This document shows, piece after piece, positions 34,376 through 64,000 of a stretch of 64,000 nt of DNA (positions are counted from its first letter, which is position 1; every line of letters starts with the position of its first letter). The translations under genes and the position numbers were made by a program. Under the pieces are notes generated by a model. The model did not search any database. It saw nothing but the letters and a program-made list of their open reading frames with translations, and was not told the DNA's origin. This stretch comes from Candidatus Heimdallarchaeum aukensis (GTDB taxonomy: Archaea; Asgardarchaeota; Heimdallarchaeia; Heimdallarchaeales; Heimdallarchaeaceae): NCBI GenBank assembly GCA_021513695.1, contig CP084166.1:1120001-1184000 (forward strand). The letters run 5' to 3'.

Positions 34376-34401
34376 ATGTTTTATATTATAGAGATAAATA
34401 A
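32644..34401 (+). CDS. PLP-dependent arginine/ornithine decarboxylase, SpeA-like (fold-III Orn/DAP/Arg decarboxylase)
   Basis: GIYPIKVNS (PLP-Lys context as in SpeA YPIKVN), IHAHPGSQI, DFGGGIPINY, CDSDGE. The 585-aa length is close to biosynthetic arginine decarboxylases. Confidence 0.75.
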   Translation: MTWSLNDSKLIYGVDQNDLYFLDINDQGELLLKLKDQSISFNEIINLVKSQFNSSSLSSVPSFTLRIPQLITEQISKLNTCFQSAIHQYQYSGNFQGIYPIKVNSLSYVLETIKANSPSYAFEAGTVNELDVLLSLLRDDKTRMIMCNGVKDSDYIDKIRGALNDGYSIVISLESCSESTTILDLIDHDLLKLALRIKPYPTVKSHWGSSSGRDSKFGLSIHEFKRIINLLEKRGVKDKVIAIHAHPGSQIIDIDGLRFFVLYLSNRYLELKRLGFTNLNNIDFGGGIPINYDNRLPSDILDNYVKTLVLTLKETITDSDVQPNIWIEAGRFLTAPSSLIIVETIALYSIFPSEESLNDHKAMISSMLEKITHPSSILNLFSHWTELQSPTIDSNVNEILKTEILMKHLKLAIREKMMNFDDEQKFNRIFDLDLDEIFYEIYSPEHILIGNFSVFNTIIDWLLVGQYFPILPIDNLDHQPVSLARLVDKTCDSDGEISIYHPVFNEEKILYTKDGFPLTVKDKKFNLMGFPIGCLPTNFPYYLVIALTGAYQDNIKMHHNLIEPLSSIIIKHENGQWNVLYYRDK

Positions 34402-49076: not shown

Positions 49077-49790
49077 TTGTATGAAGAAGAAAAGGAATTA
49101 GTAGAAGTTGATGTCAACGAAGAGGGTATTGAAGAGATATCTGTTGATGAACAAAAACAAGAAGCTGAATCTAAAGAAGAAGTGGAAGAAAAGAAAGAGT
49201 CACAAGATGAGGTTGACGAAATAGAAGAATTGCGAAAATCGCTCAAAGCACTTTTTTCAGATCCTGAAGCATTAATCGAACAATATGTTCAATTATACAA
49301 GGAGCTAAAAGAAACAAAGGAAAAGCGCGATGAATACCTTTACCTTGCTCAAAAAACTCAAGCTAATTTGGAAAACTATAGAAAACAAGTACTCAAAGAT
49401 CAACAATGGGCTAATTTCCACAATAAATCCAAAATCTTGGAGAAGTTTCTTTCCATCTACGATGACCTTGCCAGAACTCAAGCTGAATTCGATAAGAATC
49501 CAGATATCGAACATGTAAAAGAAGCTCTTCGAATGATTTTTGATAACTTCAAGGCTACTTTTGATAATTTAGAAGTTAAAGTGATCTCACCAAAAGAAGG
49601 TGAAAAATTCAATCCTCGTATTCATGAAGCTATTCATGTTTTAGAGTTAGAGGACAAAGAAAACAACTCTATTGTTGAGGTTGTAAGTTTAGGATTTATG
49701 TTACAAGACTTAGTTCTTCGTCCTGCTAAAGTAGTGATTTCAAAAGTAAAAAGCAAACAAAAAGAGGAAAATAAAGATCAAGGTGATTAG
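49077..49790 (+). CDS. grpE: Nucleotide exchange factor GrpE (TTG start, AAGGAG 10 nt upstream)
   Basis: Acidic N-terminus, long helix (..[18 protein letters not shown]..), C-terminal FNPRIHEAI...[14 protein letters not shown]. Followed by dnaK 2 nt later. Confidence 0.85.
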
Positions 49791-49792
49791 AA

Positions 49793-51703
49793 ATGTCTGA
49801 AGAAAAGAAAGAAACCAAGAAAGAAATAGTTGTTGGAATTGACTTAGGAACAACAAACTCTGCCATTGCTTATATGGTAGGAAATCAACCTCAGATTATT
49901 CCCAACGCTGAAGGAGGGAGAATCACTCCCAGTGTTGTAGCATTTAATGAGGATGGAACTAGAACTGTTGGTATTCAAGCAAAAAGGCAAGCTGTTGCTC
50001 AAGCTGAAAGAACAGTTATTGAGATTAAAAGAAAGATGGGAACTGATTATAGATTTGAAGTTGATGGAAAGAAATACAGACCAGAAGAAATTAGTGCTAT
50101 GATTCTTTCCAAACTTAAACATGATGCTGAGGAATATTTAGGTCAAAAAATTAACAAAGCAGTTATTACTGTTCCTGCATATTTCAGTGATGCTCAAAGA
50201 CAAGCAACAAAAGATGCAGGAGAAATTGCAGGTCTGGAAGTTTTAAGAATCGTTAATGAACCTACTGCATCTGCCTTAGCATATGGTTTAGATAAAGAAG
50301 AAGCAGAAAAAGTTCTCGTTTTTGACCTTGGAGGAGGAACTTTTGATGTTTCAATATTAGAATTAGATGAAGGTTTATTCCGAGTTATTGCTACAAGTGG
50401 AAACAATCTTCTTGGAGGTTCTGATTGGGATCAAAAGATAATTGACTGGATGATTGAAGAATTTAAGAAAAATGAGGGAATTGATCTTTCTGGAGACCCC
50501 AAGATTGTTCAACGTCTAAAAGATGCTGCTGAACAAGCAAAGATTGAATTAACTTCCAAACTCCAAACAAGAATTAATCTTCCTTACATTACCTTTGACC
50601 CAAAAACTAATACTCCAAAACACTTAGAGATGACACTTACAAGAGCTAAATTTGAGGAAATGACAAGAGACCTTGTTGAAAAATGCCGTGAACCTTCCTT
50701 ACAAGCAATGAAAGACGCAAAGTTAAAACCAGAGGACCTAGATAAGATTATTCTTGTTGGTGGAGCCACTCGTATGCCAATGATACAAAAAATGGTTAAA
50801 GAGCTCTTTGGCAAAGAACCTCACAAAGGAATTAACCCTGATGAGGTAGTTGCTTTAGGAGCTGCTGTTCAAGCAGGAGTCTTAGCTGGAGAGGTAAAAG
50901 ACATCCTTCTACTTGATGTTACACCTTTAACACTAGGTGTTGAAACTTTAGGAGGAGTTATGACTCCATTAATTGAAAGAAATACAACTATACCTGTAAC
51001 AAAGAAAAAAGTTTTCACTACAGCAGTTGACGGGCAACCTAGTGTGGAAATCCATGTTCTTCAAGGAGAACGTACTATGGCCAAAGATAATATCACTCTT
51101 GGTCGATTCCAGCTAGTTGGTATTCCTCCTGCGCCTAGAGGAGTTCCTCAAATTGAAGTTAGCTTTGAAATCGATGCCAATGGTATTCTTAAGGTATCTG
51201 CCAAGGACTTAGGAACTGGAAAAGAGCAATCAATTACAATTCAATCCTCACATCTAACCGAAGAAGAAATCGAACGCATGAGAAAAGACGCAGAAAAATA
51301 CAAAGAAGAGGATCAAAAGCGCAGAGAACTAATTGAAGCAAAGAACAGTGCAGAACAAGCCATATACACCACTGAGAAGACAATCAAAGAAGCTGAAGAC
51401 AAAATAAACGAAGACGAGAAAAACGCTCTTAACTCTAAAATTGAGGAACTAAAGAAAGTCCTTGAGGGAGAAGATCTTGACAAAATAAAGAAAAAGACTG
51501 AAGAATTAATGCAAGAAATGTTCAAGATCTCTCAAAGAATCTATGGCGCTGCAGGTCCTCAAGGAGCACCAGGAGCAGGGCCTACAGGCTTCCCAGGTTA
51601 TGGCGCTCCAGGTGAAGCTGCAGGAACTCAAACTGGTTCAGATATAGATGAAGAAAGTGTAATAGATGTCGACTACGAACCAGTTGACGAAGATGAAAAA
51701 TAA
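49793..51703 (+). CDS. dnaK: Molecular chaperone DnaK (Hsp70)
   Basis: [30 protein letters not shown], and a G/A/P-rich tail with an acidic C-terminus. Confidence 0.95.
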
Positions 51704-51768
51704 AACTCGGTAAAGGATAAATTTAATATTATTTCTTTTTCTTCTTTCTACCGTTAGGAAGTGACGCT

Positions 51769-52917
51769 ATGTCAGAGAAACGAGATTACTATGAAGTCTT
51801 AGGAGTTAGTCGTGATGCCTCAGAAAGTGAAATAAAAAAAGCTTTTAGAAAAAAAGCTATGCAGTATCATCCTGATCGAAATCCTGATGACCCTAAAGCA
51901 GCTGAAAAGTTCAAAGAAGTTTCTGAAGCTTTTGAAGTCCTTTCTGATCCTGAAAAACGTGCAGCTTATGACAGATTTGGTTTTGCTGGTGTAGACTCAA
52001 GTTTCTCTCATGTAAGTGCGAGTGACTTTTCCTCCTTCAGTGATTTATTTTCTACACTTTTTGGTGAGGATCTTTTTAGTGAATTTTTTGGTGGACATAG
52101 AAGAAGAGCTAGTGGACCCAGAAAGGGTTCAGATTTAGTAATGAATTACTCTATTTCTTTCTACGACGCAATTTTCGGTACAAAAAGAGTTGTTGAAGTT
52201 CCAATAAAGAAAGTTTGTTCCACATGCAATGGTTCAGGAACGAAAAAAGGTTCTTCTCCTAGAATTTGCCCCACTTGTCAAGGTTCTGGTGTGGAGACAC
52301 TAACACAAAGAAGTGGTTTCACAATTTTCCAAAGACAAATTCAATGCCGTCAGTGCAATGGAAAAGGGCAAATTATTGACAACCCTTGTCCTACTTGTAA
52401 AGGAACTGGTCGTTCAAAAGAGAATGAAAAAATTAGATTAGAAATTCCCCCAGGAGTTGATAGTGGATTTAGACTTCGAATAAAAGGAAAAGGAGAAGAA
52501 GGGCATTTAGGAGGGCCTAGAGGAGACTTATATATTAGAATAATAGTTGATGAACATCCCTTCTTCAAACGCAGTGGAGATGATCTTGCCGCTGAAATAG
52601 CTATTCCTTATCCAATTGCTGTTTTAGGAGGAGAAATAACTATACCTACTCCTTATGGACCAGAGAAGGTAAATATCCCCAAGAATACTAAAGATGGAGA
52701 TGTTATTAGACTATCCAGAAAAGGAGTTCAACGAGAAACTAGATATGGAATTAATCGTGGAGACTTTCATGTAGTTGTAAGGATAGACATTCCAAAGAAG
52801 TTAACATCTGAAGAAAAGGAGCTACTTACTAAATTATCTAAAGTAATGAAAATGCCAGAAAAACAGCAAAAACTGTTTAATAAGCTATTTGAAGAGATTG
52901 AGAAAAATAAAAAATAG
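51769..52917 (+). CDS. dnaJ: Molecular chaperone DnaJ (type I: J domain, G/F region, four CxxCxGxG)
   Basis: DYYEVLGV...[39 protein letters not shown]. Confidence 0.95.
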
Positions 52918-52980
52918 TTATTCTATAACTTCTTTTTATTTTCAGATACTTTTTTATTATGTAAATGTGATTTATTATAT

Positions 52981-53916
52981 ATGAGTGATGAAGATTTTGT
53001 TCGTTGTCCCAACTGTGGAAATCTTAACATTAAAGGTTCGACAAAATGCCTTTTCTGTGATCAGGAATTAGAAGTTTCAGAAGAAGACAAGGGTAAAGTT
53101 GTTGAAATTTTTTCCTGCCCTAGCTGTTCTACTGATTTACCTGTTGGGGTAAAGTCATGTCCCATTTGTGGATGGAGTGAAGAAGGAATAACAGAGGAAG
53201 AAGAAACCCCAACGGATAGAGGAGAATCGTTAGGTATTCCTCAAGTGGGAGCAAGTGCGCCTCCAACACCTATTGTTCCAGAAATCCCCCAAACTGAGGT
53301 GACAGAAGAAGCGAAAGAAGAAGTTCTTACTCCCAAGATTCCAGAAATATTGGAAGAAGAAGTAAAAGAAGTAGAAGAAAAAATAGTTATTGAAGAAGAG
53401 CTTGTTCTACCAGAAAAAGTATCTGTTAAATTTACAATAGCGTTCATATGTTTATCAATATTAATTTCAATATTCCATTATGGGCTCAGTTTCGTAATAG
53501 CTCTTCCTTCAGTTAAGATTATAGACCCTAATGTCCAAGTTATTCCTCTAGAAGGTGACTTATCAACTTCAGTAAAAATTAATGCTGCAGCTTTTTATTT
53601 ATCTGCAATAATATCTATTGCTACCGGATACATTATTTCGTTGTTCATTAGAAGAAGAATCAAAGAAACAAAGGATATCATTCTATGGTTAGGAATTTTC
53701 ATATTTATCGACATGTTAATTCACATTGCTATTCCTGCTTTAGCTACAATAATATTCTATCCCAGAGAGATATTGTTTATTAATTTAACAGGGGCAACAT
53801 TAGTGTTTTTAGTAACAAATATGGTTCTAATGTTCACCCCATTTATTGTTGGAGGACACTGGTTGTTTACAAAACTTGATAAACTTTATTTCCCTAAAAA
53901 ATATGCACAAAACTAA
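52981..53916 (+). CDS. Double zinc-ribbon membrane protein (311 aa)
   Basis: CPNCG...CLFCD and CPSCS...CPICG, an acidic E/P-rich linker, then about 4 TM helices. Confidence 0.6.
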   Translation: MSDEDFVRCPNCGNLNIKGSTKCLFCDQELEVSEEDKGKVVEIFSCPSCSTDLPVGVKSCPICGWSEEGITEEEETPTDRGESLGIPQVGASAPPTPIVPEIPQTEVTEEAKEEVLTPKIPEILEEEVKEVEEKIVIEEELVLPEKVSVKFTIAFICLSILISIFHYGLSFVIALPSVKIIDPNVQVIPLEGDLSTSVKINAAAFYLSAIISIATGYIISLFIRRRIKETKDIILWLGIFIFIDMLIHIAIPALATIIFYPREILFINLTGATLVFLVTNMVLMFTPFIVGGHWLFTKLDKLYFPKKYAQN

Positions 53917-53928
53917 AGATGTTACAAA

Positions 53929-54360
53929 ATGTACGGAGAAAAAATAGAAAAATTCTTGAAATATGAACTTGACAACATTAACAAACATTTGCCAAGAAAG
54001 AGGATACCACTCAAGAAAGGGTTGGAAGTAAATACTTATGTAAGTAAAGGTAACGATAAAATTTCAATTGACCCTCGAGAAATACAATTTTTGCAATCCT
54101 TATGTCCAAAGAATAAACTCAATTCTGTCTACTTGCCAATAATTATAGTGAGAAGAAGGGATCTTGGCGAAGGAGCGTATATAATTAGTGGTGAATCTAT
54201 AGAAGAATTTCTAGTTTTGAAAGCTATTAACAAATGGAAGGGCGATTGGGAAGAATTTATCAAAGAAAAAGAAAAGAGACACTATTTTTATCTTTATAAA
54301 CCAGATTTACTAGAAATAAGAAAAAAACTTTCTACATGCACTGTTATTGCTTTTAGTTAA
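53929..54360 (+). CDS. UPF0216/DUF61-like small archaeal protein
   Basis: 143 aa. ..LDNINKHLPRKRIPLKKGL......IDPREIQFLQSL.....YLPIIIVRR..GEGAYIISG.. resembles the UPF0216 pattern as I recall it. Tentative. Confidence 0.45.
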   Translation: MYGEKIEKFLKYELDNINKHLPRKRIPLKKGLEVNTYVSKGNDKISIDPREIQFLQSLCPKNKLNSVYLPIIIVRRRDLGEGAYIISGESIEEFLVLKAINKWKGDWEEFIKEKEKRHYFYLYKPDLLEIRKKLSTCTVIAFS

Positions 54361-54411
54361 ATTATGTGGGGAAACTTTATTTATTTCTATTCTTTTTTTT
54401 CTTGATAAAAA

Positions 54412-55596
54412 ATGAATTCTTACTCAATTTCTAAAGAAACTTACAAAAAAAGAATGGAAAAAATTAGAAGTTGGCTTGAAAAAGAGAAACTATCAGCAAT
54501 GATTTTCTTTAACCCTATTTCTATTTATTATTTAACAGGATATCGTTTTATTCCTACAGAGAGACCTATTTCTTTTATTTTTCCCACTGCTGATGAACCC
54601 TGGTTTTTCATCCCAAGGTTAGAAGTTGAACACATTAGAGAGAAGATACCTTGGATAACTTACGAGTACTATTTCGAATATCCAGATTTAAAACATCCTG
54701 CCAAAATATTTGTAGAATTATTAAAAAGAAAGAAACTCTTTACTGATCCTATTGCCCTTGAATCCTCTAATTTTTCAGCACATTGGGGATATAAAGGTCC
54801 GTTAATCACAGATTTATTAAAAGACGATGTTGAAACCAAACTTTTTCCTTATCTTATTATGGAAATGAGAAAAATTAAAGATGAAGAAGAACTCAAACTT
54901 ATTCGCGAATCTGCGAAATGGGGAAATCTTGCCCACAAATTATTACAAGAATATACTGAAATAGGAAAAGATGAAGTTGAAGTTAGCTTAAAAGCTTCTT
55001 GGGATGCAACAAAAGAAATGTTAGGAAAACTAAAAGATTTCATTCCACATAATGCGCTATCAGCTTATGCTGGATATAGAGGTCAAATCGGTGAATGGAG
55101 TGCAATTCCTCATTCTGTACTACAAAAAACAAAGTTTAAGGAAGGTCAAACACTTGTGACAGGAGCTTCAGCCAATGTTTCAGGATATTTGTCTGAACTT
55201 GAAAGAACAATGTTTGTTGGGAAGCCTAACGACAAACAACGTAAATATTTCCAAATAATGAAAAAAGCTCAAGATGCAGCTTTAGAAACATTTTCTCCAG
55301 GAATCCCTTGTAGCGAAGTAGACAAAGCGGCTAGAAAAGTTTTCAAAGATGAAGGGGTTTTTCATTTAGTTCAACACCATACTGGTCATGCTATAGGATT
55401 GGAAGGTCACGAACCTCCTTTTCTTGATATTGGGATAGAAGAAATTATCAAGCCAAGAATGGTTTTCACATGTGAACCAGGAATCTACGAATACAAGTTT
55501 GCAGGCTTTCGTCATTCTGACACAGTTATTATTCATGAAGATGGAGCAGAAAGAATCACTCTATATCCCAGAGATATTGAAGATTTAATTATCTGA
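54412..55596 (+). CDS. M24-family Xaa-Pro dipeptidase/aminopeptidase
   Basis: Creatinase-type N-domain followed by a pita-bread domain (HHTGHAIGLEGHEPP, FTCEPGIY). Confidence 0.8.
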   Translation: MNSYSISKETYKKRMEKIRSWLEKEKLSAMIFFNPISIYYLTGYRFIPTERPISFIFPTADEPWFFIPRLEVEHIREKIPWITYEYYFEYPDLKHPAKIFVELLKRKKLFTDPIALESSNFSAHWGYKGPLITDLLKDDVETKLFPYLIMEMRKIKDEEELKLIRESAKWGNLAHKLLQEYTEIGKDEVEVSLKASWDATKEMLGKLKDFIPHNALSAYAGYRGQIGEWSAIPHSVLQKTKFKEGQTLVTGASANVSGYLSELERTMFVGKPNDKQRKYFQIMKKAQDAALETFSPGIPCSEVDKAARKVFKDEGVFHLVQHHTGHAIGLEGHEPPFLDIGIEEIIKPRMVFTCEPGIYEYKFAGFRHSDTVIIHEDGAERITLYPRDIEDLII

Positions 55597-56520
55597 CGCT
55601 TTTTTTCTGGTTAATATAACCTTTTTTCCATTTTCTTTAATGAATATTGTGTCTTCTGCTTGAGCTACAGGTTTATTAGTTATCTCTTTTAAAACAGAAT
55701 ATCCGTGTAAAACATGTTGTTCTGTTAACTCTTCTAAAGCTTTTTCTATTTGTCTTTTACTAAATTTACTAACTAACCATCGAGGAGAAAAAGGTAATCC
55801 ATAAAAGTTATTTTTTATGTAAACAAACACTTCTCTGGCTTGAGAACTTGGAGTGTTTCTTAACTGTGAATAATGGATAAATATAGTGTCTAGATCATCG
55901 TCAATTACTATTCCTTTTCCAGTTGTTGAAAATGGTTCTATTGCATAGGCATTATTCTTGTGAAAAACATCTTTAGGTTTCCACAATTTTTTATTTTTTC
56001 CATAATTAGGAACAGATAATCCATCATGAAGAGAGTAGTGTCCAAGAGAGTGACCTGATAAGTTTGTTATAGGTTTGAATCCTTCTTTTTTGATTATTTT
56101 TTCAACAACTGCACCCACTTCGTAAACATTTACTTTATCGTTTATCTTCTTTAAAGCTGCAAAAAGTGCGTGTTCAGCAGATGTTTTTAACTTTTCAAAT
56201 TTAGGGTCAAAAATCTTCATTCTTGCTGCATCAGTTATAAAACCATCAAAGGCCACACCTAGATCTATTTTAACAATCGAGTTATCAGGTATTTCACTAA
56301 TATCATCTATTATAGGCGAATAATGTGCAGCAATTTCATTAATAGAAATATTTACTGGAAAAGCGGGTATTGCTCCTTGTTTTCTGATAAAATTCTCTGT
56401 TTTTTCAGCTATTTCTAGTAAAGATCGTCCAGGCTCGCACAAACTCAAAGCTAGTTCCATAGCTTTTACATGTATTTGTCCACTTAGTTTGTATTTTTTT
56501 TCTACTTGCATTTTAATCAT
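55585..56520 (-). CDS. map: Methionine aminopeptidase, type 2 (archaeal)
   Basis: IDLGVAFDGFITDAARM, GHSLGHYSLHDG, YAIEPF, AQAEDTIFI, plus the type-2 helical insert. About 300 aa. Confidence 0.85.
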   Translation of the reverse strand: MIKMQVEKKYKLSGQIHVKAMELALSLCEPGRSLLEIAEKTENFIRKQGAIPAFPVNISINEIAAHYSPIIDDISEIPDNSIVKIDLGVAFDGFITDAARMKIFDPKFEKLKTSAEHALFAALKKINDKVNVYEVGAVVEKIIKKEGFKPITNLSGHSLGHYSLHDGLSVPNYGKNKKLWKPKDVFHKNNAYAIEPFSTTGKGIVIDDDLDTIFIHYSQLRNTPSSQAREVFVYIKNNFYGLPFSPRWLVSKFSKRQIEKALEELTEQHVLHGYSVLKEITNKPVAQAEDTIFIKENGKKVILTRKKASDN

Positions 56521-56716
56521 TTCGTTAATATAATCAAGAAGGTATTCTGTTTTTTATTTGTTTTCTTAATACAGAAAAAGAGAAAAAGTAGATTTATGAG
56601 GACTAAATTTCATTTTTTTAAAAAAAAGGAGACTTTGAAAAGTAACGATAATATTAAAATAGAATAAATGATAAAGTAACAAGTAACTAAACCTTACTTA
56701 TTTAGGAGAAAAAAAT

Positions 56717-58471
56717 ATGCCACTTGAAACAAAAAATAACTATTTCAAACCTGTTGAACCAAAAAAATACATTGGACAGCAAGAAATCATTAAGAGTTTC
56801 AATGAACTTATAAGCAAGTTTAAAGTTGGAGAAACAGAGAAAAGGTCTGTTCTAATCATAGGAAATAATGGTACTGGAAAATCTTCGCTTCTTTTCAAAT
56901 TATCAGATTATATTAGTGGAAGAAGAGACATAAAAACAATTTACAACATTAAGCCAATAAAAGAACAAGTTGAAGGATTCTTTAGAAATTGGTTAAATGA
57001 CATCGATAAGCTTACTCCTAGCTGGGGAGGTATTTTTGAAAAGATCCCTGAACTTCCTCTTCTAAAGGATGATAATAGAATTACTGATGAAAAAGAGTAT
57101 GTAAAAAACTTTACTGATAAGTTCTTCGAAAAGATGAACAAAATCGATAAAAAATTAAAGAGTGAAAAAATAAGGCTTTATTTTTTCATCGATAATACTT
57201 CAATCTTTAGAATGATGAGATATTCTATTTTCTATAAGATTTTTTCACAAATTATTGATGAAATAGCAAAAAAAGGTTTCAATCTTTTCGTTGTAACAAC
57301 TATAGACGAACTTTTCCTTTCAGAAATTGATGTCGAAAAGAAACTTACTTTCAATTCTGAAATCTTCAAACTAGAACCATTAACAGAGGCGGAAGCTCAG
57401 ATTTTCATAAAGGAAAAATCTCCTGAATTGAAATCATCTGATGTTTTAGAGCTTCTTGAAAATAGTGAAAGGACATATTTTGATCTTGTTTTAGCTATAT
57501 ACTTCATAGAGAAGAAGCTATCTGTAACTGATTATGTTGAAAAGAACATCGTAAAACTGCTTGATATATCTGAAGAGGAACATGAAGCTCTCCAAGAAAT
57601 GAGCACCTATTCTGAGAATCTATTTCCTGAAGAAAGACTACTTAAGTTCATTCAAAAGGAAACTTTAGATAATTTAGAAAAAAAAGGTCTAATCGAATAT
57701 TTTGGTGACTATATCCGTTTTACTCAAAATGCTCTTTTAGACGTGGTTAAATTTAATGAAAAATTGTATTCTACATTGACAATAATTATGATCAAACTTG
57801 ATAAAATACATCATGATTTAGAGAGTAACATAATACCGACAGATATTGAGTTTCAAGAATTGAGAAAAATAACTTCACGAATTCACGATGGACTGTCATA
57901 CAATGTTGTTGGAGCAAAAGTTAACCAAATAATTAAACTACTAATTAAGAAAAAAGAGTTCCAAAAAGCTTATGATTTTGCTTTATTAAACATAAACAAT
58001 TTTGACCAACTTCATGATTTTGTAAGAGCAGCTACTATCGCAGAAAAGGTAGGAAGAGATTTAGAAGAAAAACACTACGCCTTTGCTGGAAAATTGTATT
58101 ATAGAGCTGGTATTTTTTACGAGACTATGAAAGAAGATTCAAAAGCTAAACGAGCATTTATTCGTGCAGCTGATCAATTTGAGAAACAATTTTCCTCATT
58201 AGATGCTAAAAACAGTCCTTATTTATTGAGAGCGCATATAAAATCATGTTTAGATTGCTACAGAAAAGCAAAAGATGAAACTAAATTTAGAAGAATCAAA
58301 GAAAAAGCAATCAAAATCTTCCCTGAAGAATCGATACATCATCGTTACATCAGTGAAATTAATTACAAGAAAATAGAAGCCATACAAGCCACTCCAATTA
58401 TAGAAGAACCAAGAGAAGAAGAAAAGAAATCCATAGATATCGACGATTTAGAAAAAGAATTAGAATTTTAG
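56717..58471 (+). CDS. STAND-like P-loop NTPase (AAA_16/Arch_ATPase-type) with a helical-repeat (TPR-like) C-terminal half
   Basis: YIGQQEIIKSFNELISKF....RSVLIIGNNGTGKSSLLFKL (lead-in + Walker A), RLYFFIDNTS (Walker-B-like). The C-terminal ~230 aa is made of paired helices (..YYRAGIFYETMKEDSKAKRAFIRAADQFE..). Confidence 0.6.
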   Translation: MPLETKNNYFKPVEPKKYIGQQEIIKSFNELISKFKVGETEKRSVLIIGNNGTGKSSLLFKLSDYISGRRDIKTIYNIKPIKEQVEGFFRNWLNDIDKLTPSWGGIFEKIPELPLLKDDNRITDEKEYVKNFTDKFFEKMNKIDKKLKSEKIRLYFFIDNTSIFRMMRYSIFYKIFSQIIDEIAKKGFNLFVVTTIDELFLSEIDVEKKLTFNSEIFKLEPLTEAEAQIFIKEKSPELKSSDVLELLENSERTYFDLVLAIYFIEKKLSVTDYVEKNIVKLLDISEEEHEALQEMSTYSENLFPEERLLKFIQKETLDNLEKKGLIEYFGDYIRFTQNALLDVVKFNEKLYSTLTIIMIKLDKIHHDLESNIIPTDIEFQELRKITSRIHDGLSYNVVGAKVNQIIKLLIKKKEFQKAYDFALLNINNFDQLHDFVRAATIAEKVGRDLEEKHYAFAGKLYYRAGIFYETMKEDSKAKRAFIRAADQFEKQFSSLDAKNSPYLLRAHIKSCLDCYRKAKDETKFRRIKEKAIKIFPEESIHHRYISEINYKKIEAIQATPIIEEPREEEKKSIDIDDLEKELEF

Positions 58472-58481
58472 GTGAAATAAG

Positions 58482-59921
58482 GTGTCAGAAAAAGAAATTA
58501 GTAAATTCAGTAAAGAAATAGAAAATTTAGAAAATGAAATTTTTGCACTAAATAGTTCTCTAGAAGAACTACAAGCTTTTGATAAATATTATAGCGAGCT
58601 TTTACAAATAATTCAGAATAAACTACTCTCGCTGAATGAAAAGCTTCGAGAATTGCATGATAACTCACATAAAGAATTAACGAATAATGTTGAAACAATC
58701 GAGGAAAAAACAAAGAATCTAACTCAAAAATGGACTGAAACAAATAAAGAAACAGTATCAACAGAGTTAAAGAACATAGGTGAAAAGTTAAACAATCTAA
58801 AGATAAAATTTGTTGAAAGTTTAAATTCAAACAAAAAAACAATTGAAAACTTATCCCAAAAATTTGTAAATGATATTAACAATATTATTAACACACACAT
58901 ACAAGAGTATGAGCGTTTTTCTACTAATCAAGTTAAGACAACAAGAGACAGTTTTACAGACATGAAAAAAGAGTTATCAGAACTACATTTGAACAGCATA
59001 AAAGAATTAGAAAAGAATACAAAAGATATAAGGACTAATTTTGATGCCAATATTAAAATTAATGAAGATATTCTGAAAGAGAGTATTCAACACTTGAGAT
59101 CAGAATATCGTGACAAATTAACTATGAATATGGAAGGAGTTTTTGAAAGTTTTGAGCGAATTAAAGACGAACTAGGTAACATGGTTACAAATACTATCCA
59201 AAAAATCCAGAATGAACTTTCAGGAATTACAGAAACAATGGATAAATACCTTATTCAAGAGATTTCTAAGATTCAAGAAATCTTAGGAGATTATGAAGAA
59301 GGAATGTTAGATGTAAACAATATAGTTATGAGTAACTTCGATGCATCTAAAAATGAACTGTTACAAACTTATGATGATCTTACAGAAAAATACATTTCTA
59401 AATACAAGAATGCGTATGCAGAACTTGAAGAGAATTACATAAAGAATAATGAATCAATATTAGAGGGTTTAGTTTCTAAATCTCAAGAGATGGTTCAGAG
59501 AGCAAAAACTGAATTCAGTCAACAACAAGAAAATATCAGTTCAATTTTAGAACAAACACACGAACAAATTATAAAAGATACATCTTACTTAGAAAGATTA
59601 TCTCAGGAACAGTTCAGCAAAATACAGCAAAGCATAGAAAGTTCATCTACTAAAATAAAAACGACCATAGAATCTTCACAAAATGATGTTAATTCTGCTC
59701 TTTCTGAACAAACTGTATCTACTAAAGAAAAAATCAACGAGTTAATTGCTAATATCAAAAAACAGGTTAAAGATCTACAAGAAAGTTCATTGAAGGCTTT
59801 AGATGAAGAAGCGAAACTTAAGATTACAGAAGCGGATAAAGCACAAAAAGAAAAGATAAAGGTAATTAATCAATTGAAAAAGACTAGTAAAACAATAGAG
59901 AAAATTAAAGAAGAACTTTAG
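58482..59921 (+). CDS. All-helical coiled-coil protein (479 aa, GTG start)
   Basis: K/E/N/I/L/Q/S/T-rich throughout, with very few Pro/Gly and none of Cys or Trp beyond a single Trp. Lies 10 nt after the NTPase gene and 11 nt before the giant ORF. Confidence 0.65.
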   Translation: MSEKEISKFSKEIENLENEIFALNSSLEELQAFDKYYSELLQIIQNKLLSLNEKLRELHDNSHKELTNNVETIEEKTKNLTQKWTETNKETVSTELKNIGEKLNNLKIKFVESLNSNKKTIENLSQKFVNDINNIINTHIQEYERFSTNQVKTTRDSFTDMKKELSELHLNSIKELEKNTKDIRTNFDANIKINEDILKESIQHLRSEYRDKLTMNMEGVFESFERIKDELGNMVTNTIQKIQNELSGITETMDKYLIQEISKIQEILGDYEEGMLDVNNIVMSNFDASKNELLQTYDDLTEKYISKYKNAYAELEENYIKNNESILEGLVSKSQEMVQRAKTEFSQQQENISSILEQTHEQIIKDTSYLERLSQEQFSKIQQSIESSSTKIKTTIESSQNDVNSALSEQTVSTKEKINELIANIKKQVKDLQESSLKALDEEAKLKITEADKAQKEKIKVINQLKKTSKTIEKIKEEL

Positions 59922-59932
59922 GAAGTGAAAAA

Positions 59933-62900
59933 ATGGAGTCCACGTTAGAGAAAATGGGTTTATCAAAAGAAGAAATAGAGGTTTACGCAAATATTGTTCA
60001 ATTTGGTTTCAGAACAATTGGGCAAATACAAGTATATACAAAAACAAATACTGAAACTATTGTACAAGCTTTAAATAAATTAGTAGAAAAAGGTTATATT
60101 AAAGAAATAAAACCAAGAAAGCCAGAAGGCACTTCAATATTCATTCCTCTTCCTCCTCAAATTAAACTTACAGAAGATGTGGCAAAGAGATTAGATAACG
60201 AATTATCAGCTCTAAGTAAAGAAGTAAGTGAAGATTGGAATAAAACAATCACTTTATTACGTAAAGAATTACTCTCTTTTCACGAGAATATATCTTCTAA
60301 CATTGGAGAACATAAAAATCATATTTCTGCTGATGCAAACAAATTTCACTCTAATATGAATGAACTTATTGATAAAAAGAGAACAGAGTTAGAAAACGCG
60401 ATTTCAAAAATTAACCAAGAAATAAAAACAATCCTAGAGACTGATGAAGAAAATCTCCAAAAATCTTCAGAAAGAGTAAAAGAAACAATAAATAATAGTT
60501 TTGATACTACTATTCACAAAATAGGTGAATTTCACGATAATTTCAAATCAAAAATTGAAGAAACATACCAAAAACTAGAAGATAAGCATAAAGAAAGAAT
60601 CGAGAAACAAAAAGAGAACATTCAAAATAAGCTTCAAGAGATCTCTGAATTAGCAAAGAGCAATCTTGACAAAAATTTAGCTGTTTTAGATGAAAATCAG
60701 GTAATTGTTAATGAAAAAACTTCTGATGTTTTTTCTGATTTAGCTGAAAAGAGTAACAGTGTTGGAAATAATAGCATTGAATCAACAAAGAAAACAATTA
60801 GCTCGATCATAGAGGAATATAAAGGAAAAATTAACCAATATCAATTAAATGTTAAAGAAATTTTAAGTTCTCTAAACGAAGAACTAACAGCTCTTGAGAA
60901 TTCAACGAATGACAACATTATTCAAACCATTACTCAAGCTAAAGATATCGCTATTTCTGTACTAAATGAGAATGAAAAACAATTCATAAAGTTAGTAGAA
61001 GACACAAAAACAAATGCAGTTCAGAAACTAAGTCAACTTATTTCTGAAACAGGAGAGAAGAATAACAATGCAAAAGAGGAATTAATCTCTGCATTAAAGG
61101 ATTATCTCTCCCAATTTGAAGAGAATAGCAAAAATCTTCTTGACTTACTAAAAAATGGAATAAACGCAGGTTTTGCTAATTTACAAGATGGATTAGAAAA
61201 ATCAATTACTCAACTCAATGAACAGATAACAGCTATGCAAGAAGACATAGAAGAATTTGTTGAGACATATATTGGCTCTTTATTCGAAGATATTGAAAAC
61301 ATTAAACAAACCATACTAACAAAATTAAATACAAATATTGAAAAGTTCTCAAAAGACACAACTGACAAACATAAGAAGAACAAAGAACTGATCGCAAAAA
61401 TAGAAAATGACTTCACTCAAGCTACTACTGATATTATTAAGAAATCAAATGAAATGATAGTAAGTGAAACAGAGAAAATATCTTCTGAAATAAAAGAAAA
61501 CAAAGAAAAACTGAAGGAAGAAAATACCTCTTTCCTTACAATAATTAATGAAAACATAGAGAGTTACAAGGACACACTTTCTGAAACTATGAAACAACTT
61601 TCTGAAAATAAGCAAGAGTTCAATTCATTCTTTGTAGAACACCTGGAAAACTTGAAAACTGAAGTAATAGAAAAAATAGAAGCTAATAAAGATACAAATA
61701 TCGAAAATATACAAAAGAAACTAGATTTAAAGAACGAAGAATATGCTTCAAAAATCAATGATTTTGTAGAAGAATATCTACAAAAGTCTAGAGATATAAG
61801 AGATGAAACACCAAATCTCGTTGAACTAGAATATACAAAGGCTTCTAACAAAATCAATGAACTAAGTTCTACTCTATCAGAACTTATCAGTGCCTTCACT
61901 TCTATGGTTAATGAGATTTATGAAAAAATAGATGAAAAAGCCGCCAACAAGTTATTTGGTAAAGGTGAAGGATTAAACTTCATTGATAGATTAGAAAAGA
62001 TCAAGAATGATAATCAAAACATAGCTGAAAAAGTAAAAACAGATCTTGACACACTTTATCGCACTTTTGAAAGTTCTAAAGAAAAATTAAGTGAAGATAT
62101 TTTTTACAAAATGAATAGACATATTGAATCCTTTACAAGTTATAACGAGGAAAATATTACAAAGTTTAAAGAATTCATGGAAAATACAAAGAAAGAAATT
62201 AAAGAAAGCTTGGATTCTGCAACAGGAGAATTAAAAAATAAGATAAACGTTGAGATGTCAGAATATAAAACAGCTTTTGATACACAAATTAATGATAAAT
62301 TCATAATATTATCTTCGTTAGTTGGTGAAGAAATAGAAAATAAAACAGAGGATTTACTTGAGATTGACACTTTAGAAGACTTTTTCACGAAGGTAAAAGA
62401 TGAAACCAGTACAAAAATTAAAGAATTTGTTAAAATGCTTGATTCATCACTTACTAAACAGGAAAAATCTTCTGATTCTTTGCACAAATCTTTAGTTAAA
62501 AAACTTGATGAATTACAGATACAATCTCTGAAGACACTAAATAAAGCTAAAATAGAGTTAGAAAAAGTAAATGATGAAATTACTACAGAGTCGAACTCTC
62601 TTCTTCAGACAACTGTAGAAAACATGGAACAAGATATTGAAAACACAATTACAGAGAGTAAGGAAAAAGCAAATGAAAAAGTGGCTGAAAAGAAAGAAGA
62701 ACTAACCAAAATTGTCACAGAGAGTATTGATGGTTTAGTAGAATCAAAGAATAGAATTCAAGCTGAAATAGAAAAAAGTAACAATGATGTTTTTGCTAAT
62801 TTAGATGATTCAATTGTTAAAAATATAGAGTCACATTCAGAGCTAGTAGACTCATTATCTAACAAGATGGACAATTCAATGGTAAGTTTACAAGCAGAAC

Positions 62901-64000
62901 TCGATGAAGCAAAGAAAGCTTTGGACACAGAAGTCAGTGATACTTTAGATAAAGCTTCTGAAGATTATAGTACTCATACTAACAAAGTCAACAAGGAAAT
63001 AGAAGAAAAGATCAATGAAAAAATAAACGAATTCAAAGAACAGTTTAGAGAAATCACTGCAGAGATTTCTGTAGATCCTGAGAAGGAATCACCTTTAGAT
63101 GAAACTACTTCAGAAATTATTGCTCAGTTAGAAAAAATAACGAAACAGTATCCTTCTCAAATGAAGAAAGAGAGAGATGAATATGTGGAAAAGATTAAAG
63201 AAACATTGTCTCAATTCCAAGAATCTACTCAAACTAAAATTGATACAATAATATCAAGTGTAAAGAAAGATGTGCAAAATGTTTTCGACTCTTCTTCTGA
63301 GTTCCTTGGTAAAAGTATCAATGAAATAGAACAAAGTTTTGAAAAAGAAGTAAACGATTATACTTTAGCGGTAAATTACGATGTTAATACACTTGTAAGT
63401 TCATCTGACAGCAATTCAGGAGCTCTGGTTACCAATATTCAAAGTACAAGAGACTCATTAATTGATACAATTGACGTAACAAACAAATCCATCGCTTCGA
63501 ATTTGGATACAATCGAAAAATCAACTAATGATGCTCTAGCTGTTTTTCTCTCATCTACTTTAGAACAATTGAAAGAGATTTCTCAAGGAACAGAGGAGAT
63601 TCTCAATCAAAAAGACGCTTATCTAAAAACAGTAGATGAATTTAGAGACAAATTCATTGAAACAAATACAAGTATTATTGACAAGGTTGAAAAAGATGTT
63701 TCAAAGACCTTAAAGACTATTCCTGAAAAGATCAAGAATGTTTTAGAAGCAACAGCTGATGCAATGGAATTAATGCGTAAGGTTCTATCTTTAGGAGCAG
63801 GAATTGAGCCTAAAGCAATTGAAGAAACCTGGGTAGTTTATGGTAAAGAGCAAGTAGATTCAGCTATAATGTCAATGTTTTCTCGAACAAAACGATCCTT
63901 AACTGCTGTAACACCTTACTTAAATTGGATGGACATCGAAACCTTGGAACAGGATGCTAATATTTCAAGAAAGAGGATTGAAATTATATCTGATATGGGT
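59933..64000 (+). CDS. Giant TrmB-family wHTH / coiled-coil protein, 3'-partial (>=1,356 codons, no stop before window end)
   Basis: I translated the frame from ATG 59933 to nt 64000 and found no stop. It is not in the supplied track because it is open-ended. The N-terminus MESTLEKMGLSKEEIEVYANIVQFGFRTIGQIQVYTKTNTETIVQALNKLVEKGYIKE is TrmB-type wHTH. The last ~55 aa resemble the start of a TrmB C-terminal domain. Confidence 0.8.
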   Translation, partial: MESTLEKMGLSKEEIEVYANIVQFGFRTIGQIQVYTKTNTETIVQALNKLVEKGYIKEIKPRKPEGTSIFIPLPPQIKLTEDVAKRLDNELSALSKEVSEDWNKTITLLRKELLSFHENISSNIGEHKNHISADANKFHSNMNELIDKKRTELENAISKINQEIKTILETDEENLQKSSERVKETINNSFDTTIHKIGEFHDNFKSKIEETYQKLEDKHKERIEKQKENIQNKLQEISELAKSNLDKNLAVLDENQVIVNEKTSDVFSDLAEKSNSVGNNSIESTKKTISSIIEEYKGKINQYQLNVKEILSSLNEELTALENSTNDNIIQTITQAKDIAISVLNENEKQFIKLVEDTKTNAVQKLSQLISETGEKNNNAKEELISALKDYLSQFEENSKNLLDLLKNGINAGFANLQDGLEKSITQLNEQITAMQEDIEEFVETYIGSLFEDIENIKQTILTKLNTNIEKFSKDTTDKHKKNKELIAKIENDFTQATTDIIKKSNEMIVSETEKISSEIKENKEKLKEENTSFLTIINENIESYKDTLSETMKQLSENKQEFNSFFVEHLENLKTEVIEKIEANKDTNIENIQKKLDLKNEEYASKINDFVEEYLQKSRDIRDETPNLVELEYTKASNKINELSSTLSELISAFTSMVNEIYEKIDEKAANKLFGKGEGLNFIDRLEKIKNDNQNIAEKVKTDLDTLYRTFESSKEKLSEDIFYKMNRHIESFTSYNEENITKFKEFMENTKKEIKESLDSATGELKNKINVEMSEYKTAFDTQINDKFIILSSLVGEEIENKTEDLLEIDTLEDFFTKVKDETSTKIKEFVKMLDSSLTKQEKSSDSLHKSLVKKLDELQIQSLKTLNKAKIELEKVNDEITTESNSLLQTTVENMEQDIENTITESKEKANEKVAEKKEELTKIVTESIDGLVESKNRIQAEIEKSNNDVFANLDDSIVKNIESHSELVDSLSNKMDNSMVSLQAELDEAKKALDTEVSDTLDKASEDYSTHTNKVNKEIEEKINEKINEFKEQFREITAEISVDPEKESPLDETTSEIIAQLEKITKQYPSQMKKERDEYVEKIKETLSQFQESTQTKIDTIISSVKKDVQNVFDSSSEFLGKSINEIEQSFEKEVNDYTLAVNYDVNTLVSSSDSNSGALVTNIQSTRDSLIDTIDVTNKSIASNLDTIEKSTNDALAVFLSSTLEQLKEISQGTEEILNQKDAYLKTVDEFRDKFIETNTSIIDKVEKDVSKTLKTIPEKIKNVLEATADAMELMRKVLSLGAGIEPKAIEETWVVYGKEQVDSAIMSMFSRTKRSLTAVTPYLNWMDIETLEQDANISRKRIEIISDMG

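Follow-up and report, generated by a model that had tools for sequence, protein, structure and literature searches.

In the 64,000-nt window analysed here (the whole stretch of DNA taken from Candidatus Heimdallarchaeum aukensis), three open reading frames follow one another on the + strand at 56717..58471, 58482..59921 and 59933..64000. They are separated by gaps of 10 nt (58472-58481) and 11 nt (59922-59932), exactly the coordinates and spacing given in the original prediction. Gene 1 starts with ATG and encodes 584 aa, gene 2 starts with GTG and encodes 479 aa, and gene 3 remains open for 1356 codons to the window end. Shine-Dalgarno-like motifs lie just 5' of each start (AGGAG, 8 nt 5' of the gene 1 ATG; AGGTGA for gene 2; GGAAGTGA for gene 3). 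The AT-rich intergenic region upstream (56521..56716), common to the trio and a divergent M24 peptidase gene, contains a TATA-like TTTAAAAA at about 56616 and, judged by its sequence, is a putative operon promoter. For the 3' end of gene 3 we extended the contig, as had been proposed, with a 99.99 % identical one (L001) that supplies the last 84 codons and the stop. The complete protein is 1440 aa long and its gene is followed by a T-run. Contig L001 carries a 1-nt deletion at window position 63947, and it is the window's frame that leads on into the conserved C-terminal domain. All sequences used are from metagenome-assembled genomes.

All three proteins have full-length collinear orthologues, 31-42 % identical, whose genes keep this order and lie 5-15 nt apart; for the rods, position-specific conservation extends over the full length at 31-35 % identity. 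Among the fetched loci with enough flanking sequence, the window included, the full trio is present in 13 and a two-gene variant in 2. The trio occurs in Heimdall, Loki/Promethearchaeota, Wukong, Frey and Hermod lineages, in neighbourhoods that are otherwise unrelated, and the conservation elsewhere against which the prediction was to be judged is therefore present. The same order and tight spacing recur in Heimdall loci L002, L003, L006, L008, L019, L020 and L022, and in L012, Loki L013, Wukong L014, Frey L017 and Hermod L018. One variant (Hel, L015) pairs gene 1 with a gene 3-like protein and the other (L016) pairs it with a gene 2-like protein; thus, the trio is not obligatory. Within the Heimdall clade the locus sits in housekeeping synteny, with grpE-dnaK-dnaJ and M24 peptidases upstream and GAPDH downstream. 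No integrase or defence-island neighbours were seen in the examined synteny, and a virus contig search did not find the trio. Judging from its genomic context, the locus is not mobile. We found no published account of the trio in the literature, in line with the claim that its composition is undescribed.

Gene 1 (56717..58471, +) encodes a P-loop NTPase with a lid/helical domain and a TPR-like alpha-solenoid. The NTPase N-terminus and TPR-like C-terminus read from the sequence earlier were both recovered: Walker A is GNNGTGKSS (56861..56887, aa 49-57), Walker B is LYFFIDN (57176..57196, aa 154-160), and a stack of paired helices spans 57701..58354 (aa 329-546; pLDDT mostly 80-96). The family alignment contains F[VT]GRxxE, GxGxGK[ST][ST], hhhhD and GG[IV]P / R[TS]PF, which make up the STAND motif set, and the solenoid corresponds to the C-terminal superstructure-forming repeats of STAND proteins. 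The window protein has degenerate forms of the first and last of these (YIGQQE and RTYF); YIGQQE (56768..56785, aa 18-23), upstream of the P-loop, is a copy of the STAND 'hhGRxxE' motif, for which most Asgard orthologues have F[VT]GRxxE. The window protein falls below the Pfam cut-offs for AAA_16 (21 bits, cut-off 32.6) and nSTAND1 (18.9, cut-off 27.1), and its orthologues have recorded matches to AAA_16, nSTAND1 and ATPase_2 with E<=1e-5. An AAA+/STAND fold plus solenoid is supported, and on its motifs we assign gene 1 to the STAND-class NTPases. At least 90 % of the family keeps the Walker B Asp. The residue after it varies (N/D/E/G/P/S/C), so the family has no conserved catalytic Glu, which points to a switch rather than a motor. 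A C-terminal acidic tail, IDDLEKELEF (58439..58468), is invariant across the Heimdall clade and missing from other Asgard clades in the orthologue comparison.

Among 1.84 billion proteins, relatives of gene 1 with E<=1e-10 comprise 33 representatives. For full-length relatives, all source-named cluster members looked up are Asgard archaea, and the family appears to be restricted to them. The nearest known relatives are STAND NTPases such as MalT, NLR/Avs and the archaeal PF01637 ATPases PAB2304 and SSO1545. Gene 1 differs from these in lacking an N-terminal effector or DNA-binding domain, in its Asgard restriction, in always adjoining hendecad rod genes and, for the window protein, in its sub-threshold Pfam scores. 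It is neither an ordinary Orc1/Cdc6 protein nor an IS helper ATPase; the combination of AAA+ initiator core, C-terminal winged helix and family match that marks Orc1/Cdc6 is absent.

Gene 3 (59933..64000, +) begins with the TrmB-type winged helix-turn-helix that had been predicted (59945..60151, aa 5-73), which scores 31.9 bits against PF01978 (cut-off 25.6); orthologues score 31.6 (Loki), 38.1 (Wukong) and 24.7 (L012) bits. As in the TrmB family, an amphipathic helix follows directly: the hendecad region from about aa 76, which resembles the TrmB dimerisation helix in kind, not in size. The C-terminal region (aa 1262-1440, of which the window holds aa 1262-1356 at 63716..64000) starts with a linker helix and continues into a PLD-fold alpha/beta domain of TrmB/TrmBL2 type. 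In an AF2 model of an orthologue this domain has pLDDT above 90 over its core. In a profile search with the domain against 177,635 PDB sequences, both of the two best matches were TrmB (E 0.019, 0.032), aligned at TrmB residues 111-206, directly after the TrmB coiled-coil helix; a sequence-level Pfam match of gene 3 to the TrmB C-terminal domain was not found. The domain is non-catalytic and has no HxK(x)4D motif. The original prediction recognised no enzymatic or effector domain, and this holds for effectors, but gene 3 has this further domain. Its protein ends about 150 aa after the start of the PLD-like domain and the sugar-binding beta-barrel subdomain of TrmB is missing, an architecture that matches the shorter TrmBL2 type and not TrmB itself.

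Gene 3 therefore shares both ends, a winged helix-turn-helix and a non-catalytic PLD-fold domain, with TrmB (a Thermococcales sugar regulator; PDB 3QPH, 2F5T) and TrmBL2 (a chromatin protein; PDB 5BPD). From its sequence we place it in the TrmB family, enlarged by a giant helical insert, and DNA binding by its helix-turn-helix is predicted from family membership. Between the two ends lie about 1190 aa of hendecad helix, compared with about 35 aa in TrmB. Unlike TrmB and TrmBL2, gene 3 has a conserved central apex in its helix and is locked into a putative operon beside the genes for a STAND ATPase and a second rod.

That second rod, gene 2 (58482..59921, +; 479 aa), has a single a/d/e/h hydrophobic seam that runs uninterrupted and without a change of phase between about aa 14 and 468, and would be one continuous helix of ~65 nm. 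In genes 2 and 3 the hydrophobic period is 3.66-3.67 residues (11/3, hendecad) and stays in phase over hundreds of residues. The periodicity power at this period is 10.7 for gene 2 and 13.5 for gene 3, compared with about 1 in shuffles and 0.15-0.47 at period 3.5; none of the other 41 window ORFs of 150 aa or more has a hendecad peak > 2.4. All orthologues of both genes have the same period (power 8-23), with nothing at 3.5. The a/d/e/h core is rich in I/L, I/L/F/Y fill 60-87 % of the a and h positions, and proline is absent from gene 2 and occurs 14 times in the 1440 aa of gene 3. Thus, these are not ordinary heptad coiled coils; they are of an unusual hendecad (11/3) type. The long helical character claimed earlier for the pair survives with this refinement. 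Neither protein has an ABC head, signal peptide or TM segment (the gene 2 N-terminus is MSEKEISKF), so a surface-layer identity was rejected, and standard SMC/Rad50-type proteins do not account for them either. The length of gene 2 is tightly kept within clades (479-486 aa) and tracks the gene 3 arm length loosely (r = 0.73, over 9 non-independent loci).

The helical region of gene 3 is divided at its geometric centre by a conserved apex (61775..61987, aa 615-685), where the hendecad phase breaks and the motifs RDIRDETPNLV (620-630) and DEKAANKLFGKGEG (667-680) are found. Arm 1 (60158..61774, aa 76-614) keeps a single constant phase that continues to about aa 650. Arm 2 (61988..63715, aa 686-1261) consists of 4-5 phase segments parted by shifts equal to about one residue, and includes the conserved island SDSNSGALVTNIQSTRDS (aa 1158-1175). 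Across the window protein, the long and short Heimdall classes and the L012, Loki, Wukong and Hel proteins, no more than about 30 aa separate the middle of the helical region from the first phase break and from a conserved motif with Pro/Gly. Hypervariability is confined to module 1 in arm 1 (61235..61504, aa 435-524; ~14 % identity between window and long class) and module 2 in arm 2 (62339..62635, aa 803-901), which mirrors module 1 about the apex. Both are deleted in the 1257-aa class relative to the 1471-1489-aa class (117 aa in long-class coordinates, and 104 aa), at 150-273 and 140-242 residues either side of an apex that the two classes retain at 55-60 % identity.

The central apex and these mirrored deletions suggest that the two arms lie against each other. 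In other words, the insert probably folds back on itself at the apex; the resulting antiparallel arm would be about 85 nm long. The support consists of one matched deletion pair, essentially one evolutionary event, together with a weaker case in the window protein (33 versus 17 aa) and the central phase break. Tests for anti-diagonal covariation and charge complementarity across 25 sequences gave no signal. A simple two-helix hairpin does not readily account for the asymmetry between the arms, with 3-4 phase shifts in arm 2 and none in arm 1.

As inferred, the plan resembles that of SMC, Rad50 and MukB: a long intramolecular antiparallel coiled coil, turning at a conserved apex, brings the two terminal domains into one DNA-binding head, an ATPase belongs to the system, and the arm length is in the 50-100 nm range. 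The trio nevertheless lacks an ABC signature motif and a kleisin or Mre11 partner, its ATPase is separate and of STAND class, and its arms are hendecad where those of SMC-type proteins are heptad. SMC models match gene 2 as coiled coil only (18 bits, cut-off 567) and gene 1 as P-loop only. With no ABC head halves, and with a helix-turn-helix and a PLD-like domain as the gene 3 termini, membership of this group was rejected; any likeness would be convergent, without homology.

The 11/3 hydrophobic periodicity is also found in the ZorA tail, a 70-nm right-handed coiled coil (PMC11946911), in the peripheral stalks of A/V-ATPases, which are hendecad heterodimers (PMC3293630), and in tetrabrachion. 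Genes 2 and 3 differ from these in having no membrane motor domain and no rotary ATPase context and in not being secreted, and the gene 3 rod is fused to DNA-binding domains. PADLOC matched the locus to the coiled-coil tail part of ZorA profiles only (about 215 to 800, genes 2 and 3). A ZorA (Zorya) identity was rejected given the N-termini of gene 3 (helix-turn-helix) and gene 2, the lack of TM segments and the lack of a ZorB-like gene nearby. Exchangeable apolipoproteins, perilipin 4 and alpha-synuclein have 11/3 amphipathic periodicity as well, and gene 3 exceeds the cut-off of PF01442. Genes 2 and 3 are distinguished from apolipoproteins as cytoplasmic proteins with a strongly aliphatic a/h seam. 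Membership was rejected because gene 3 starts with a helix-turn-helix and both proteins lack a signal peptide and 22-residue punctuation by proline (0/14 prolines); the resemblance appears to lie in the kind of repeat and is no demonstration of homology or of lipid binding.

Taking these features together, we suggest, tentatively and at a little short of an even chance, that genes 1-3 form a single operon encoding a nucleotide-gated, DNA-anchored long-rod assembly. The gene order and its conservation, the domain identities and the hendecad periodicity that enter this proposal are direct tool results. We infer how the arm folds back, which partners touch and what the assembly does in the cell. 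The helix-turn-helix and PLD-like domain of gene 3 would be kept together as a DNA-binding head, as in TrmB, with a right-handed-type (hendecad) coiled coil in place of the TrmB dimerisation helix projecting from the DNA as an antiparallel arm. The gene 2 rod would have to pair with itself or run along this arm. The TPR-like domain of gene 1 could bind the rods at the apex or ends, and its nucleotide-dependent oligomerisation could cluster or free them. Such an assembly might serve as a bridge or tether for chromosomal DNA, reaching about 0.1 micrometre, in nucleoid organisation, segregation or anchoring, and would be neither a sugar-responsive gene regulator nor a defence system. The tethering, chromatin-organising and gated-sensing roles put forward in the original prediction agree with the evidence as candidate functions. 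In bacteria, RacA-DivIVA and Scy/FilP-ParA offer comparable arrangements: a helix-turn-helix protein with a coiled coil fastens the chromosome to a scaffold, and scaffolds built of coiled coils cooperate with a P-loop ATPase. The likeness is by analogy only: the families are unrelated, the ATPase of the trio is STAND rather than ParA/MinD, and the trio is several times larger.

A bolder form of this proposal, which we consider possible but on the unlikely side, is an Asgard lineage-wide, non-SMC, long-armed DNA organiser. Here a TrmBL2-like chromatin-binding head with a fold-back right-handed coiled-coil arm of 75-115 nm would form, with the second rod and the STAND switch ATPase, a nucleoid scaffold under nucleotide control or a tether between the nucleoid and some other structure. 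If true, this would be a structural system new to description and a prokaryotic counterpart of the nucleoskeleton in the closest relatives of eukaryotes. No described system known to us combines a switch-type ATPase, a ~65-nm rod and a long-armed TrmB-type DNA-binding protein.

Other readings share parts of this evidence. An 11/3 period is a hallmark of amphipathic helices on lipid surfaces, and genes 2 and 3 could form a coat of giant helices flat on lipid, in the manner of exchangeable apolipoproteins, perilipin 4 and alpha-synuclein, with gene 3 tying DNA to a membrane or lipid body and gene 1 regulating the attachment. Consistent with this are the period itself, a score of 115.6 bits for gene 3 against Pfam Apolipoprotein A1/A4/E (PF01442; cut-off 90, gene 2 below it), a narrow hydrophobic face with many Ser/Thr/Asn in seam positions, Lys-biased positions flanking that face and Glu-rich positions opposite. 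We judge such a coat improbable: the I/L/F/Y content of the a and h positions amounts to a real hydrophobic core, Pro-punctuated 22-mers are lacking, and full-length position-specific conservation exceeds what amphipathicity by itself needs. Moreover, the mirrored deletions and central apex are predicted by a self-pairing arm and not needed by a surface-bound helix. Long rods with non-heptad periodicity also resemble the bacterial Scy/FilP class, and genes 2 and 3 might polymerise into a scaffold like Scy/FilP, crescentin or intermediate filaments, with the helix-turn-helix as DNA adaptor and the ATPase as assembly regulator. Two different rod proteins encoded together, two-gene variants that keep gene 1 with either rod type and lengths strictly kept within clades agree with polymerisation; a TrmB-type head at both rod ends and the central apex suggest instead a discrete particle, and we give the filament little credence. 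It overlaps with the DNA-anchored assembly and is hard to tell apart from it computationally.

A role in sensing or defence, in which the STAND NTPase would detect an invader or stress through its TPR-like domain as Avs/NLR do and act through the rods by analogy with the ZorA tail in Zorya, seems to us quite unlikely. The ZorA matches are limited to the tail part of the profile, and MotA/ExbB membrane domain, ZorB and any effector domain (nuclease, protease, TIR or similar) are lacking; the PLD-like domain has no HKD motif. Defence genes are patchily distributed, unlike a trio conserved vertically across clades, set in housekeeping synteny free of integrase or defence-island neighbours and not found on viral contigs. 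Least probable, and disfavoured, is an ordinary TrmB-type transcription factor with a long linker beside unrelated genes, for which the TrmB helix-turn-helix and TrmB-like second domain of gene 3 would speak. The trio stays together across at least five Asgard lineages in differing contexts, gene 3 is missing the sugar-binding C-terminal subdomain of TrmB, and a conserved 1190-aa helix is not a linker.

A conserved operon of three + strand genes at the end of the window encodes a switch ATPase of the STAND class, a head of the TrmB/TrmBL2 type and a pair of very long rods built on hendecads, in which hydrophobic residues recur with an 11/3 period rather than the 3.5-residue period of heptads. 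Gene 1 (56717-58471) is an ORF of 584 aa, gene 2 (58482-59921, GTG start) one of 479 aa, and gene 3, which opens at 59933, is still without a stop after 1356 codons when the window ends. The intergenic gaps of 10 nt and 11 nt each hold a Shine-Dalgarno-like motif; all three ORFs and their spacing are as the original prediction had them. G+C content is about 29%, with a strong excess of A on the coding strand. A 7.2-kb Logan contig retrieved with the exact gene 2 protein (L001) matches window 57034-64000 at 99.99% identity and extends beyond the window end, adding 84 gene 3 codons, a stop and then a T-run. Together, window and contig give a complete gene 3 of 1440 aa. In L001, a 1-nt deletion at window 63947 (G at L001 6914, GG in the window) splits gene 3, and gene callers consequently split off an 86-aa ORF. 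The window's version is the correct one, since its reading frame leads into a conserved domain.

Gene 1 has just eight close homologues, each in a MAG of Heimdallarchaeaceae or Heimdallarchaeota, and in their contigs the trio keeps its order, with gaps of 5-15 nt. Genes 1, 2 and 3 encode 586, 480 and 1481 aa at locus L002, 594, 479 and 1481 aa at L003, 590, 485 and >253 aa at L006, and 591, 484 and 1258 aa at L008. All three proteins align end to end with those of the window at 31-42% identity. The window and these close loci also share flanks: upstream dnaK-dnaJ, a zinc-ribbon membrane protein, DUF61 and two M24 peptidases, and downstream GAPDH. In the window the upstream genes lie at 49077-56520, together with a probable grpE assigned by position only. 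Those Heimdallarchaeaceae contigs that reach far enough keep the order from dnaK or dnaJ through the M24 peptidases, and have beside gene 1 an extra divergent gene of 135-148 aa that is absent from the window.

Searching 1.84 billion representatives with a gene 1 profile matched 82 proteins (33 at E<=1e-10), about 30 of them full-length relatives of 550-630 aa. Every source-named cluster member looked up among the full-length relatives was an Asgard archaeon, and the lineages include Heimdall, Promethearchaeota (Loki), Wukong, Hel, Frey and Hermod. The trio recurs with gene 1/2/3 products of 556/436/1478 aa at L012, 575/769/1532 aa in Loki (L013), 570/498/1534 aa in Wukong (L014), 574/767/1806 aa in Frey (L017) and 574/717/1719 aa in Hermod (L018), and the neighbouring genes differ at each of these five loci. 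Two-gene variants pair gene 1 with a 1110-aa gene 3-like protein in Hel (L015) and with a 711-aa gene 2-like protein at L016. A metagenome scan with a Heimdall-only alignment of the gene 3 C-terminal domain yielded four loci with upstream sequence. Gene 2 lies in front of gene 3 in all four, and gene 1 is present in all three that reach far enough upstream. Viral contigs yielded no relative. A word-index search with the last 260 aa of the window/L001 composite returned no match, missing even the orthologues, which reflects the method's limits.

Two observations concern individual loci. A small Arf/Ras/Roc-family GTPase gene lies within about 5 kb of the module in both two-gene variants (L015 17586-18077 and L016 16162-16692), which may be coincidence, as Asgard genomes are rich in such genes. 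In the metagenomic Heimdall-type locus L022, genes 1 and 3 each contain a single in-frame TAG (4431-4433 and 7667-7669), the one in gene 1 standing where the L006 orthologue has Glu. Pseudogenization, sequencing error, or TAG read-through or recoding could account for these codons.

Gene 1 encodes a switch ATPase of the STAND class that lacks an effector domain and whose TPR-like part is a sensor or adaptor domain, in line with the STAND-type NTPase and TPR-like C terminus originally predicted. Pfam gives only sub-threshold matches to AAA_16 and nSTAND1. The assignment follows from the motifs of an Asgard-wide alignment and from a stack of paired helices in an AF2 model. In the alignment, the STAND-type F[VT]GRxxE precedes a GxGxGK[ST][ST] P-loop, and a lid motif (GG[IV]P / R[TS]PF) is present; these are motifs by which Leipe et al. 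in 2004 reportedly defined STAND NTPases. The model (pLDDT 76.8) has a five-stranded P-loop core, then a helical lid region, and the well-predicted helical stack at aa 329-546, so that gene 1 shows both the motifs and the architecture of the class. The residue after the Walker B Asp varies (N, D, E, G, P, S or C), and there is thus no conserved catalytic glutamate. In three orthologues the Walker A lysine is an arginine (P0013, GTGRTS; P0017, GSGRSS; P0028, GSGRTS), which adds to the impression that gene 1 may be a switch that works by binding and not an active hydrolase. The protein ends, at aa 575-584 (window 58439-58468), in an acidic tail of the pattern [ILV][ED][DN][LI]EKEL[ED]F. This tail (EDLEKELEF) is invariant in the Heimdall clade, although overall identity there is just 38-42%, is absent in other Asgard clades, and resembles a short linear docking motif. 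Sequence comparison of gene 1 with the PDB returned only insignificant P-loop matches to Arf GTPases, which were discarded.

The hydrophobic residues of genes 2 and 3 give a single, very sharp Fourier peak at 3.661-3.674 residues (11/3 = 3.667). Peak power is 9-14 in Heimdall proteins and up to 23 in Frey proteins, compared with about 1 in shuffles and 0.03-0.47 at the heptad period of 3.5. Only these two among the 43 window ORFs of at least 150 aa have the peak. The coiled-coil reading originally proposed therefore holds as regards long helical proteins, but the repeat is a hendecad and not an ordinary heptad. I, L, F and Y occupy positions a, d, e and h of the 11-residue repeat (hydrophobic fractions in gene 2 of 87, 39, 55 and 61%); K-biased positions flank this seam and E-rich positions lie opposite. 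Gene 2 contains zero prolines and keeps one phase over about aa 14-468, implying that it probably forms a single helix of about 65 nm with a nearly straight hydrophobic stripe. The tail of ZorA is a 70-nm right-handed coiled coil (PMC11946911), and the peripheral stalks of archaeal and bacterial rotary ATPases are hendecad coiled coils. The periodicity accounts for the match of gene 3 to Pfam Apolipoprotein (115.6 bits, cut-off 90) and for the NCBIfam and PADLOC matches to ZorA, those from PADLOC being confined to the tail part of the profiles. With all of these, genes 2 and 3 share the type of repeat but not family membership. A LEA-like disordered protein was rejected on account of the strongly aliphatic seam, and a compositional artefact on account of position-specific conservation and a periodicity unique within the window. 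The module contains one of the longest continuous hendecad coiled coils seen in a protein, which makes it relevant to the structural biology and design of coiled coils.

Gene 3 belongs to the TrmB family and carries a giant helical insert. The N-terminal TrmB winged HTH that had been predicted lies above the Pfam cut-off, as it does in the Loki and Wukong orthologues. The last ~150 aa are conserved in all lineages (motifs W.V.G, TK[SR], P and RDG.EE) and were identified only through family profiles and fold comparison; the window protein's C-terminal domain alone gave nothing useful against Pfam and the PDB. An AF2 model of this domain from the orthologue P0141, 52% identical to the window over the domain, has a core pLDDT above 90. 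With a six-lineage profile, TrmB provides the best two of 177,635 PDB sequences at E values of 0.019 and 0.032, borderline alone (0.16 with an earlier profile). The match spans TrmB residues 111-206, exactly where the effector domain follows the coiled-coil helix. Like its counterpart in TrmB, this PLD-like domain lacks the catalytic HxK(x)4D motif. The second, sugar-binding subdomain of TrmB is also missing, giving gene 3 the architecture of the chromatin protein TrmBL2. Gene 3 thus has three of the four TrmB-family features considered and lacks the one that separates TrmB proper from TrmBL2. Where TrmB has a short dimerization helix, gene 3 has about 1190 aa of hendecad helix. Within the second arm of this insert, an almost invariant polar island, SDSNSGALVTNIQSTRDS (aa 1158-1175, window 63404-63457), is far better conserved than its surroundings and is a candidate binding site or joint.

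We infer that the gene 3 insert folds back on itself at a conserved central segment, or apex. The hendecad phase of the window protein holds steady over aa 57 to about 650 and is broken at RDIRDETPNLV ... DEKAANKLFGKGEG (aa 620-680), after which four to five phase segments follow. Aa 668 lies halfway between the HTH's end and the onset of the C-terminal region. A break lies within about 30 aa of the geometric centre in both Heimdall length classes (centre 689 and break 699-720 in the long; 576 and 575-607 in the short), in L012, and in the Loki, Wukong and Hel proteins, the last three counting for less because they have extra breaks. The short class (1256-1264 aa) is without two segments of 117 and 104 aa present in the long class (1470-1489 aa), the first 150-273 residues ahead of the apex and the second 140-242 residues beyond it. 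BLAST between the classes implied a single central gap, a reading overruled by block-wise identity, which shows the apex block retained at 55-60%. The two segments missing from the short class are also the only ones to fall to ~14-16% identity between the window protein and the long class, against 30-40% elsewhere. Matched changes in both strands are expected of a fold-back arm and not of a parallel rod, and the mirrored deletions favour the former. The matched pair is, however, essentially one evolutionary event, and phase shifts are present in the second arm and absent in the first. Among 25 related sequences, neither APC-corrected mutual information along anti-diagonals nor charge complementarity peaked at the expected centre, which at that number does not count against antiparallel pairing. 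Folding back would keep the HTH beside the PLD-like domain, as in TrmB. Gene 2 length follows arm length loosely (r = 0.73, nine non-independent loci), and the two are nearly equal in the Frey, Hermod and short Heimdall versions, hinting that gene 2 may lie along the arm.

In the mechanism we propose, the gene 3 head would bind DNA and the folded arm would project about 85 nm (75-115 nm across lineages). Contacts would be supplied by the apex, gene 2 or both, and the nucleotide state of gene 1 would set the clustering or release of the rods. The most economical function, which we put forward tentatively, would be to tether or bridge chromosomal DNA over a long range and so to serve the organization, segregation or anchoring of the nucleoid. 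A filament-forming cytoskeletal scaffold, which overlaps with tethering, is rather unlikely. So is a lipid-surface coat made of giant amphipathic helices; if that reading held, archaea would have a first DNA-linked apolipoprotein-like system, also new. A STAND-based sensing or defence module seems quite improbable. An ordinary regulator with chance neighbours is very doubtful. Co-occurrence of the three homologues elsewhere, set beforehand as a test on which the original prediction could fall, is clearly borne out by the loci described above.

Membership of SMC/Rad50, Orc1/Cdc6, ZorA or the apolipoproteins fails in each case on a defining feature. An IS helper ATPase was rejected as no IS context is present, and a surface-layer reading of genes 2 and 3 was also rejected, which disposes of every alternative named at the outset. 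The module may work like an SMC-type long-armed organizer but is not related to one. No description of the trio was found in open-access papers and bioRxiv. Its parts belong to familiar superfamilies. Their assembly, conserved across Asgard lineages, in which a TrmB head on a putative fold-back hendecad arm is joined by another rod and, in trans, by a STAND ATPase, has no described counterpart there. Tethering, if true, would be a new solution to a general problem, an SMC-like head, fold-back arm and apex having arisen out of the scaffold of a transcription factor while the ATPase is provided in trans. Three genes in at least five Asgard lineages would then build a DNA-anchored object of about 0.1 micrometre under nucleotide-switch control. 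The organization of the chromosome and complex cell interior of Asgard archaea bears directly on the origin of the eukaryotic cell.

Elsewhere in the window, a direct tandem repeat with a unit of about 3.0 kb (28501-31373 and 31501-34375) is 99.86% identical between copies, and because of it the ORFs at 29642-32266 (874 aa) and 32644-34401 (585 aa) start with identical sequence. It reflects either duplication in the very recent past or an artefact of assembly.
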